Notes: a model not told the origin generated them from the sequence alone. 64,000 nt of DNA from Escherichia coli (GCF_013122565.1 NZ_CP053258.1); one strand, 5' to 3'. Counted from the first letter of the stretch, positions 38,373 through 40,304 are shown. Made by a program: numbers and translations.

Positions 38373-40304
38373 TCAAATGGGGCGGATACTTTCTTCATCC
38401 AGCTCCGCATCGAAAAACCGACGCAGGGTCTGAATATTATTATCCGCAATAATGGACTCGCGCGCCTGCGCAAGTTTTTCTTCGTATATCGCCTGACGCC
38501 ACTCCAGCGGCGTACGCACCGCGGGATTATCATCTTCAACGATAGTCAGTTCAACCGTTGAACCTTTTAACATGCTCAACGCTTCAGCCAGTTTTTGCTG
38601 TGCACCGCGGTTGTTCAAATGCCGCTGAGAGGAGCGCAAATGCAGACATACTGCGTTATCACTCTCCTCTTTCCAGGCATTTAACGCCACCTGTTCGACC
38701 AGTTTTGGTAGCGAAAGTTGACTCACCTGAGCCGCCCACGCGTCGCGCTCAATGGCTTCTGCCGCCAGCTTCGCCGCCAGTTCCGGCGTTTTTTCATGTT
38801 CCAGCGCTTTTTTCAGCGCCTTCGGCGTGGCGACCACTTCTTTTTGCTGCATCACTGGAGTGGTCGCCTTCCAGCGATACGCTTCTTTTTTAGCTGGCGC
38901 TTTTTCCAGCGCCGATGGCACCGGACGCGCCTGAACGCGATCTGTGACCGAAGCCAGTCTTTCCAGCGCAGCGTTATTCACCGGCCGCGCGCGGGTAGCG
39001 GCTGCCGGTTCACTCTTTTTTGCTTTGGTTGCTCCCTGCACGCGCTGCAACTGCTGGCGCGCCGCCAGCACCTGGCTGGTGGTTTCCGGGAGCGGTACAG
39101 TCGGTGCCTGCTGCGGCGCTGATTGCGGTTGCGGCGGCACCTGGGTTGGGGTCATTACTGCCGTTGGCGCGACGGGTGCAAAGGACTGTCGTGGCACTTC
39201 TGGCTCAGGCAGCGGCATACGCGGATGGAATGCCAGCGCGCGCAGCAGCGTCATCTCAACGCCCATGCGGCGGTCCGGCGCATACGGTAATTCTTTGCGA
39301 CCAATCAACAGCGTCTGATAGTAAAGCTGAATATCCGTCGGCGGTATGGTGCGCGCCAGTTCACGCATCCGCAGCTCGATGGCGGCCATGTCGTTGCCAA
39401 GTGCAGCAGGCGAAAGTTGTACCATCGCAATACGATGCAACAGACCGAGCATTTCCACCAGCAACGCTTCCCACTCGATACCACGGGCAGCGGCTTCATT
39501 AATCAGCGCCATTACGCGCTCGCCGTTGGCCTCGACCATCGCTTCAACCAGCGACAGCGCCTGATCGTCGTCAAGCGTACCCAGCATCGTACTGACCGCC
39601 TGGGTTGAAACCTGGCCGTCACCGCTGGCAATCGCCTGGTCGGTCAGACTTAAGGCATCTCGCAGGCTGCCTTCAGCGGCGCGTGCCAGCAATTGCAGCG
39701 CCCGCGGCTCGTGAGCGATATGTTCTTCGTTGAGGATGTGCTCAAGCTGATGGCGAATTTGCTCGACATCCAGCGCCTTGAGATGAAATTGCAGACAGCG
39801 TGACAAAATCGTCACCGGCAATTTCTGTGGATCGGTCGTCGCCAGCAGAAACTTAACGTGCTCCGGCGGCTCTTCAAGGGTTTTTAACAGTGCGTTGAAG
39901 CTGTGGCGCGACAGCATATGCACTTCGTCGATGAGATAAACTTTGAAACGACCACGCGCCGGAGCGTACTGGACGTTATCCAGCAGGTCGCGGGTATCTT
40001 CAACTTTGGTGCGCGAGGCGGCGTCGATTTCAATCAGATCGACAAAGCGCCCCTGCTCGATTTCACGACAGTTATCGCACACGCCGCACGGCGTCGCGGT
40101 AATGCCGGTTTCGCAGTTTAGCCCCTTCGCCAGCAGTCGGGCGATAGAGGTTTTTCCGACGCCACGGGTACCGGAAAAAAGATAAGCATGATGAATACGC
40201 CCTAACGACAAGCCGTTCGCCAGTGCGGTCAGCACATGTTCCTGGCCGACGACGTCAGCAAAGGTTTGTGGGCGCCATTTTCGGGCTAAGACCTGATAAC
40301 TCAT
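38373..40304 (-). CDS. dnaX: DNA polymerase III subunits tau/gamma
   Basis: 643-aa ORF, MSYQVLARKWRPQTFADVVGQEHVLTALANGL..., with Walker A GTRGVGKTS. Confidence 0.95.
   Translation of the reverse strand: MSYQVLARKWRPQTFADVVGQEHVLTALANGLSLGRIHHAYLFSGTRGVGKTSIARLLAKGLNCETGITATPCGVCDNCREIEQGRFVDLIEIDAASRTKVEDTRDLLDNVQYAPARGRFKVYLIDEVHMLSRHSFNALLKTLEEPPEHVKFLLATTDPQKLPVTILSRCLQFHLKALDVEQIRHQLEHILNEEHIAHEPRALQLLARAAEGSLRDALSLTDQAIASGDGQVSTQAVSTMLGTLDDDQALSLVEAMVEANGERVMALINEAAARGIEWEALLVEMLGLLHRIAMVQLSPAALGNDMAAIELRMRELARTIPPTDIQLYYQTLLIGRKELPYAPDRRMGVEMTLLRALAFHPRMPLPEPEVPRQSFAPVAPTAVMTPTQVPPQPQSAPQQAPTVPLPETTSQVLAARQQLQRVQGATKAKKSEPAAATRARPVNNAALERLASVTDRVQARPVPSALEKAPAKKEAYRWKATTPVMQQKEVVATPKALKKALEHEKTPELAAKLAAEAIERDAWAAQVSQLSLPKLVEQVALNAWKEESDNAVCLHLRSSQRHLNNRGAQQKLAEALSMLKGSTVELTIVEDDNPAVRTPLEWRQAIYEEKLAQARESIIADNNIQTLRRFFDAELDEESIRPI
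38981..39021 (-). other. dnaX programmed -1 ribosomal frameshift cassette (slippery A-AAA-AAG at 39021..39015 plus downstream stem-loop 39008..38981)
   Basis: On the minus strand: GCA AAA AAG AGU GAA CCGGCAGCCGCUACCCGCGCGCGGCCGG. The heptamer is in the zero frame at codons ~429-430. The -1 frame reads AAA AAA GAG UGA, ending gamma after Lys-Lys-Glu. Confidence 0.85.

Follow-up and report, generated by a model that had tools for sequence, protein, structure and literature searches.

An intact E. coli-type dnaX −1 programmed ribosomal frameshift cassette in a 64,000-nt stretch of Escherichia coli DNA

The dnaX locus raises the question of whether one gene yields both the tau subunit and the shorter gamma subunit through an intact −1 programmed ribosomal frameshift cassette, as a preliminary description of this DNA had claimed, and of how the site compares with the one already known. 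The dnaX element sets the tau:gamma ratio in the replicase clamp loader, and it serves as one of the main models in which −1 programmed frameshifting is studied. The site of E. coli K-12 has been known since 1990 and was dissected by Larsen et al. (1994/1997; cited in PMC5009743 and PMC7282821). In the window, by which is meant the whole stretch of 64,000 nucleotides that was analysed, the site is almost certainly a canonical E. coli-type cassette: the presence, phase, spacing, structure, conservation and covariation of every signal, together with identity to K-12, were observed directly, and nothing in the sequence speaks against this reading. The frameshift site is thus real, intact and already known; being identical to the K-12 site of 1990, belonging to a curated Rfam family and carrying a RefSeq flag, it adds nothing new.

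All signals lie on the minus strand, which the preliminary description had left unstated, and the sequence that it quoted is the reverse complement of the window. The gene and the parts of the cassette are as follows.

38373..40304, minus strand: dnaX zero-frame open reading frame, from the ORF list, encoding tau (643 aa, 71.1 kDa)
38976..39040, minus strand: whole cassette according to Rfam RF00382 (65 nt; gene positions 1265-1329, as for the K-12 feature)
39032..39037, minus strand: Shine-Dalgarno (SD)-like 5' stimulator AGGGAG, exactly 10 nt upstream of the heptamer
39015..39021, minus strand: slippery heptamer A_AAA_AAG (gene nt 1284-1290; third base of codon 428 and codons 429 and 430)
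39010..39015, minus strand: −1 frame codons GAG (Glu, 39015..39013) and UGA (stop, 39012..39010)
39010..39014, minus strand: purine-rich linker AGUGA from heptamer to stem, read from the sequence
38980..39009, minus strand: 3' stem-loop, comprising the 28 nt first reported (38981..39008) and an A-U closing pair, from the MFE and Rfam structures

As mRNA, the site reads ...GUG CAG GGA GCA ACC AAA GCA AAA AAG AGU GAA CCG GCA GCC GCU ACC CGC GCG CGG CCG GUG AAU.... Codon 428 (GCA) contributes its third base as the first A of the heptamer, and AAA (429) and AAG (430) follow, giving the X_XXY_YYZ arrangement (phase 2). The heptamer, at 39021..39015, was therefore correctly placed by the preliminary description at zero-frame codons ~429-430, and its interval, 38981-39021, runs exactly from the last base of the stem to the first A of the heptamer. 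Translation into the −1 frame yields a product of 431 aa (47.6 kDa) with the C-terminus ...GATKAKKE, as compared with 643 aa and 71.1 kDa for tau; the reported −1 frame stop, read as GAG UGA, was found at 39015..39010, and the product ends in Lys-Lys-Glu as had been proposed.

Upstream, the SD-like AGGGAG (39037..39032), an element missing from the preliminary description, is counted among the three dnaX frameshift signals (PMC5389563, PMC5009743). It forms a 6-bp duplex with the 3' end of 16S rRNA at −7.4 kcal/mol, compared with −10.3 kcal/mol for AGGAGG and −2.8 kcal/mol for the AUAUCA mutant of PMC5389563. With the three signals together, a frameshifting efficiency of 50-80% has been reported for dnaX, which falls to 2% when the heptamer is changed to G_AAG_AAG, to 20% when the hairpin is deleted, and to 50% when AGGGAG is replaced by AUAUCA (PMC5389563).

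Downstream, the 28 nt quoted for a stimulatory stem-loop shortly after the heptamer, CCGGCAGCCGCUACCCGCGCGCGGCCGG, match the minus strand exactly at 39008..38981. The hairpin begins 6 nt past the heptamer, or 5 nt (AGUGA) past it when the A-U pair 39009/38980 is included, and AGUGA has been named as the wild-type dnaX linker (PMC7282821). Its architecture, in the MFE prediction as in the Rfam consensus, is a lower stem of 6 bp that includes the A-U pair, then an A/G apposition and an upper stem of 5 bp with one bulged C, capped by the loop UACCC. Because of the extra A-U closing pair, the internal A/G apposition and the bulged C, the stem is best given as 10-11 bp and not as a perfect helix, and the published dnaX stem, described as having 11 bp, likewise contains an A:G apposition and one bulged C (PMC5009743).

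The host gene contains the full set of DnaX domains, which is the setting expected of an RF00382-type element. In the N-terminal part, Pfam matches are DNA_pol3_delta2/AAA (residues 20-178), DNAX_ATPase_lid (182-230) and DNA_pol3_gamma3 (domain III, 232-358), and in the C-terminal part DNA_pol3_tau_4 (domain IV, DnaB-binding, 417-498) and DNA_pol3_tau_5 (domain V, alpha-binding, 500-640). The frameshift point lies 14 residues inside the Pfam domain IV model, with domain V downstream. The gene order around it, priC-ybaN-apt-dnaX-ybaB-recR-htpG-adk, is the standard E. coli arrangement. The claim of an intact dnaX −1 frameshift cassette is accordingly borne out by a full-length RF00382 match, a K-12-identical element, the complete domain set and standard synteny. 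A candidate STnc460 sRNA inside the 3' end of dnaX (38433..38522) scored 25 bits against a gathering score of 70 and was treated as noise.

Comparison with the published dnaX site, which the preliminary description had proposed as a check, gives complete identity over the 65-nt element: there are 0 differences from E. coli K-12, so that neither heptamer nor stem is mutated, as had been stated. The identity extends over 206 nt (gene nt 1156-1361), the nearest substitutions being at gene nt 1155 and 1362. AGGGAG, the 10-nt spacer, A_AAA_AAG, AGUGA, the 10-11-bp hairpin and GAG-UGA of K-12 are all present here, and the two loci differ outside the element only, by 17 nt in the 1932-nt window dnaX (99.1% nt identity) and 2 amino acids (T239 for A, A522 for P). 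Over the 101 nt spanning the site, identity to K-12 MG1655 is 100%, and 5401 of 5424 complete E. coli genomes show at least 99% identity. The whole window dnaX has a match in 5424 of the 5426 complete E. coli genomes, the best being 99.4% identical and 4049 lying in the 95-99% band. Two of the 5424 matches are on plasmid-labelled records and two of the 5426 genomes are without a dnaX match; both are likely to be assembly or labelling oddities. More broadly, the segment 30000..50000 of the window is at most 98.7% identical to any of the 5,426 complete E. coli genomes, so that the DNA comes from an E. coli-like lineage outside this collection, possibly Shigella or one that it does not sample.

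In RefSeq/PGAP, the homologous 65 nt are labelled 'DnaX frameshifting element', and the CDS is named 'DNA polymerase III subunit gamma/tau'. The assertion that an ORF-only annotation misses the recoding element thus holds for lists of open reading frames, but not for RefSeq/PGAP, which already carries it. An ORF-only gene call should gain gamma, encoded by 40304..39015 and then by 39015..39010 in the −1 frame (431 aa).

The individual signals differ in their statistical weight. AAAAAAG occurs 14 times in the window versus 8.6 +/- 3.0 expected, and the heptamer by itself is therefore not unusual; the dnaX copy is the sole one of the 14 in frameshift phase within a long ORF. The other 13 copies were rejected as frameshift sites (0/13 in frameshift phase inside a long ORF), including two further copies in dnaX (38891 and 38813), both in phase 0. 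The composite AGGGAG-N10-AAAAAAG, by contrast, occurs once in the window versus 0.03 expected. The RF00382 (DnaX ribosomal frameshifting element) covariance model matches over positions 1-65 of 65, at 39040..38976 on the minus strand and without truncation, scoring 96.8 bits against a gathering score of 35 (cmscan; E = 1.9e-21 local, 5.8e-20 window-wide). The 28-mer hairpin folds at −16.3 kcal/mol (z = −1.6 versus shuffles) and, with flanks including the A-U pair, at −19.1 kcal/mol (z = −2.3), while a 76-nt context gives z = −0.51, with 53/200 shuffles folding equally well. In G+C-rich coding sequence such as this, folding energy is not decisive, and the covariance model, covariation and identity were used instead.

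For covariation, one genome per prokaryotic species was scanned with the pattern AGGGAG-N10-AAAAAAGAGTGA (SD, heptamer and AGUGA), leaving the stem unspecified, and the set examined comprised 120 listed stretches, the window and one E. coli locus. Among the matches listed there are at least 77 Enterobacterales dnaX sites from ~20 genera, including Escherichia, Citrobacter, Enterobacter, Kosakonia, Kluyvera, Pluralibacter, Trabulsiella, Siccibacter, Buttiauxella, Pantoea, Erwinia, Mixta and Serratia, which reduce to 56 unique sequences. Collinsella loci (L002, L003, L012 and ~40 others among the matches listed) and a few more are not dnaX. The Collinsella match, which recurs in many species of the genus, lies at a gene start that is conserved (AAGGGAG, 5 nt, GTG CCA AAA AAG AGT GAG...), and these loci were dropped from the hairpin test because the pattern had been matched through an SD, a GTG and Lys-Lys codons. 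One further locus (L065), titled Chryseobacterium sp. 18061, carries a Citrobacter-type dnaX cassette nearly identical to that of Citrobacter sp. 18056 (L062) from the same study, and this assembly probably bears a wrong label or contains contaminating sequence.

Of the 56 unique sites among the matches listed, 55 form a hairpin that starts 5-6 nt past the heptamer. Among 39 aligned distinct sequences from these matches, 25 close the stem with A-U and 13 with G-C, double changes from G-C to A-U occur at two further pairs, and compensatory changes occur at 4 pairs, a pattern to be read with the protein coding of the region in mind, which also constrains the stem sequence. In this alignment, again among the matches listed, 86.5% of cells are paired, versus 28-53% when the partners are slid. 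The covariation score was equalled in 0/500 shuffles (a count of shuffles and not a probability), for a sample chosen by SD, heptamer and AGUGA and covering cassette-bearing relatives only.

Other Enterobacterales cassettes share the SD, heptamer, AGUGA, −1 stop and lower stem CCGGC/GCCGG, and those of Enterobacter, Pantoea and Serratia differ in having the upper stem GCGC/GCGC and loops of 5 or 8 nt. A single E. coli-type structure for all genera was accordingly rejected, as the three upper-stem pairs do not form in between 9 and 24 of the 39 rows; these pairs look unpaired under the E. coli structure because several genera use a different register (GCGC/GCGC). Owing to this register difference, the covariation evidence rests on the lower stem and a few upper-stem changes. 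The sole site without the standard hairpin (1 of 56 unique among the matches listed) is that of Candidatus Pantoea persica (L052), where the upper stem has been lost through an in-frame deletion of 12 nt by comparison with other Pantoea. The SD-like element, heptamer and −1 UGA are all retained there.

Identity to the K-12 sequence suggests that frameshifting takes place in this strain, and its efficiency and kinetic mechanism would be those reported in the literature for the identical sequence. A ribosome reaching A_AAA_AAG would hold tRNA-Lys on AAA (429) and on AAG (430). In an E. coli-like host, a single tRNA-Lys with modified U34 probably reads both codons (PMC5009743); a search of the window for tRNA genes, tRNA-Lys included, found none. 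The hairpin, lying 5-6 nt downstream at the mRNA entry channel, would impede both translocation and A-site tRNA binding, while persistent pairing of AGGGAG, 10 nt upstream, with the 16S anti-Shine-Dalgarno would hold the ribosome in place. About half of the ribosomes would then slip back by one base, with both tRNA-Lys re-pairing on AAA AAA; the shifted ribosomes would add Glu at GAG and release gamma (431 aa) at the UGA that follows, and the unshifted ones would continue in the zero frame to give tau (643 aa). Published work on E. coli dnaX likewise has ~50% of ribosomes shifting and terminating one codon later (PMC5009743).

Gamma made in this way (residues 1-430 plus Glu) would keep the clamp-loader ATPase domains I-III and lose domain IV almost entirely and domain V completely. 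The Pfam domain positions thus imply that it retains the clamp-loader core and loses the helicase and polymerase contacts. This domain loss is consistent with the tight binding of Pol III by tau and not by gamma (PMC4756838).

Several other explanations were weighed against a ribosomal frameshift at this site. The mere chance meeting of an A-rich heptamer and a G+C-rich palindrome, devoid of recoding function, would be compatible with the lack of enrichment of AAAAAAG alone and with a hairpin energy only modestly better than that of shuffles, but it would have to coincide with the RF00382 match, the rarity of the composite motif, the hairpin covariation between genera, a site that is nearly invariant across E. 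coli while the remaining dnaX sequence varies, and identity to an experimentally tested sequence; the chance that this is the answer is vanishingly small. That the hairpin instead serves the plus strand, for example as an intrinsic terminator (a G+C-rich stem followed by ...CTCTTTTTTGC), with its location in dnaX being incidental, is scarcely credible. The plus strand does have a T6 run, the complement of the heptamer, at most 7 nt past the reverse-complement stem (38981..39008), but the terminator scan made no call at the hairpin, since the start of the T-run is not within 0-2 nt of the stem; moreover, the plus strand at the site holds nothing but mechanical ORFs antisense to dnaX, and the RF00382 match is on the minus strand. 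The production of gamma by RNA polymerase slippage on the A-run, in the style of Thermus thermophilus dnaX, is very improbable too. The site does contain a run of six A, and Thermus gamma is made by transcriptional slippage (PMC5009743), but productive transcriptional slippage in bacteria involves runs of 9 A or T (PMC5009743), and six A fall short of the nine needed. A conserved hairpin and an SD-like element at fixed spacing are signals directed at the ribosome, and the exact cassette on defined mRNAs gave 60-84% frameshifting in in vitro translation (PMC5389563, PMC7282821).

The remaining alternatives accept the ribosomal frameshift and concern how it proceeds and what it yields. The hairpin might act mainly by blocking A-site tRNA binding, or slippage might be of the single-tRNA 'hungry' P-site kind; this is unlikely, though it deserves serious weight. 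The dnaX stem-loop hinders A-site tRNA binding as well as translocation, slowing the former ~5-fold and the latter ~7-fold (PMC7282821), and a slow one-tRNA route has been described under starvation, when aminoacyl-tRNA is limiting; the prevalent route is nevertheless two-tRNA slippage during EF-G-driven translocation, and tRNA-Lys is abundant, so that only starvation brings the one-tRNA route into play (PMC6771820). A lineage-specific tuning of gamma:tau relative to K-12, or the formation in vivo of minor −4 or +2 shift products, which are so far seen in vitro only, is also most improbable. As the 65-nt element is invariant, any retuning of the gamma:tau ratio would act through changes outside it.

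Frameshifting in IS911 occurs on A_AAA_AAG. In this IS3-family element, the shift fuses the two ORFs orfA and orfB into a longer transposase, whereas the dnaX shift truncates the product after one codon. The stimulator of IS911 is a three-way junction (PMC5009743), in contrast to the simple hairpin of dnaX. In Thermus thermophilus, dnaX also gives a short gamma and a full-length tau, at ~1:1 (PMC5009743), but through RNA polymerase slippage on a long A-run, with no slippery heptamer accompanied by hairpin and SD. In Caulobacter, the same gene likewise gives a short gamma beside full-length tau (PMC5009743), but gamma is formed by proteolytic cleavage of tau, again with no such combination of heptamer, hairpin and SD.

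Elsewhere in the window, a giant open frame, some 5,790 codons long or more, occupies 1..17376 on the minus strand and runs off the left window edge. Its first 1200 aa contain many Big_13/Big_6 Ig-like repeats in addition to a BapA_N prefix domain, and it adjoins a gene for a 451-aa TolC-like outer-membrane efflux protein (OEP; 17479..18834, minus strand). Together the two resemble a giant-adhesin island with type I secretion, located beside ybaT-glsA-copA; the corresponding position in strain EcN_Sk holds a pseudogene remnant only. Three non-coding RNAs in the window scored above their Rfam gathering scores.

25216..25299, minus strand: sroB sRNA
30976..31053, minus strand: naRNA4 (nucleoid-associated ncRNA 4)
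55844..55940, minus strand: 4.5S/SRP RNA, ffs
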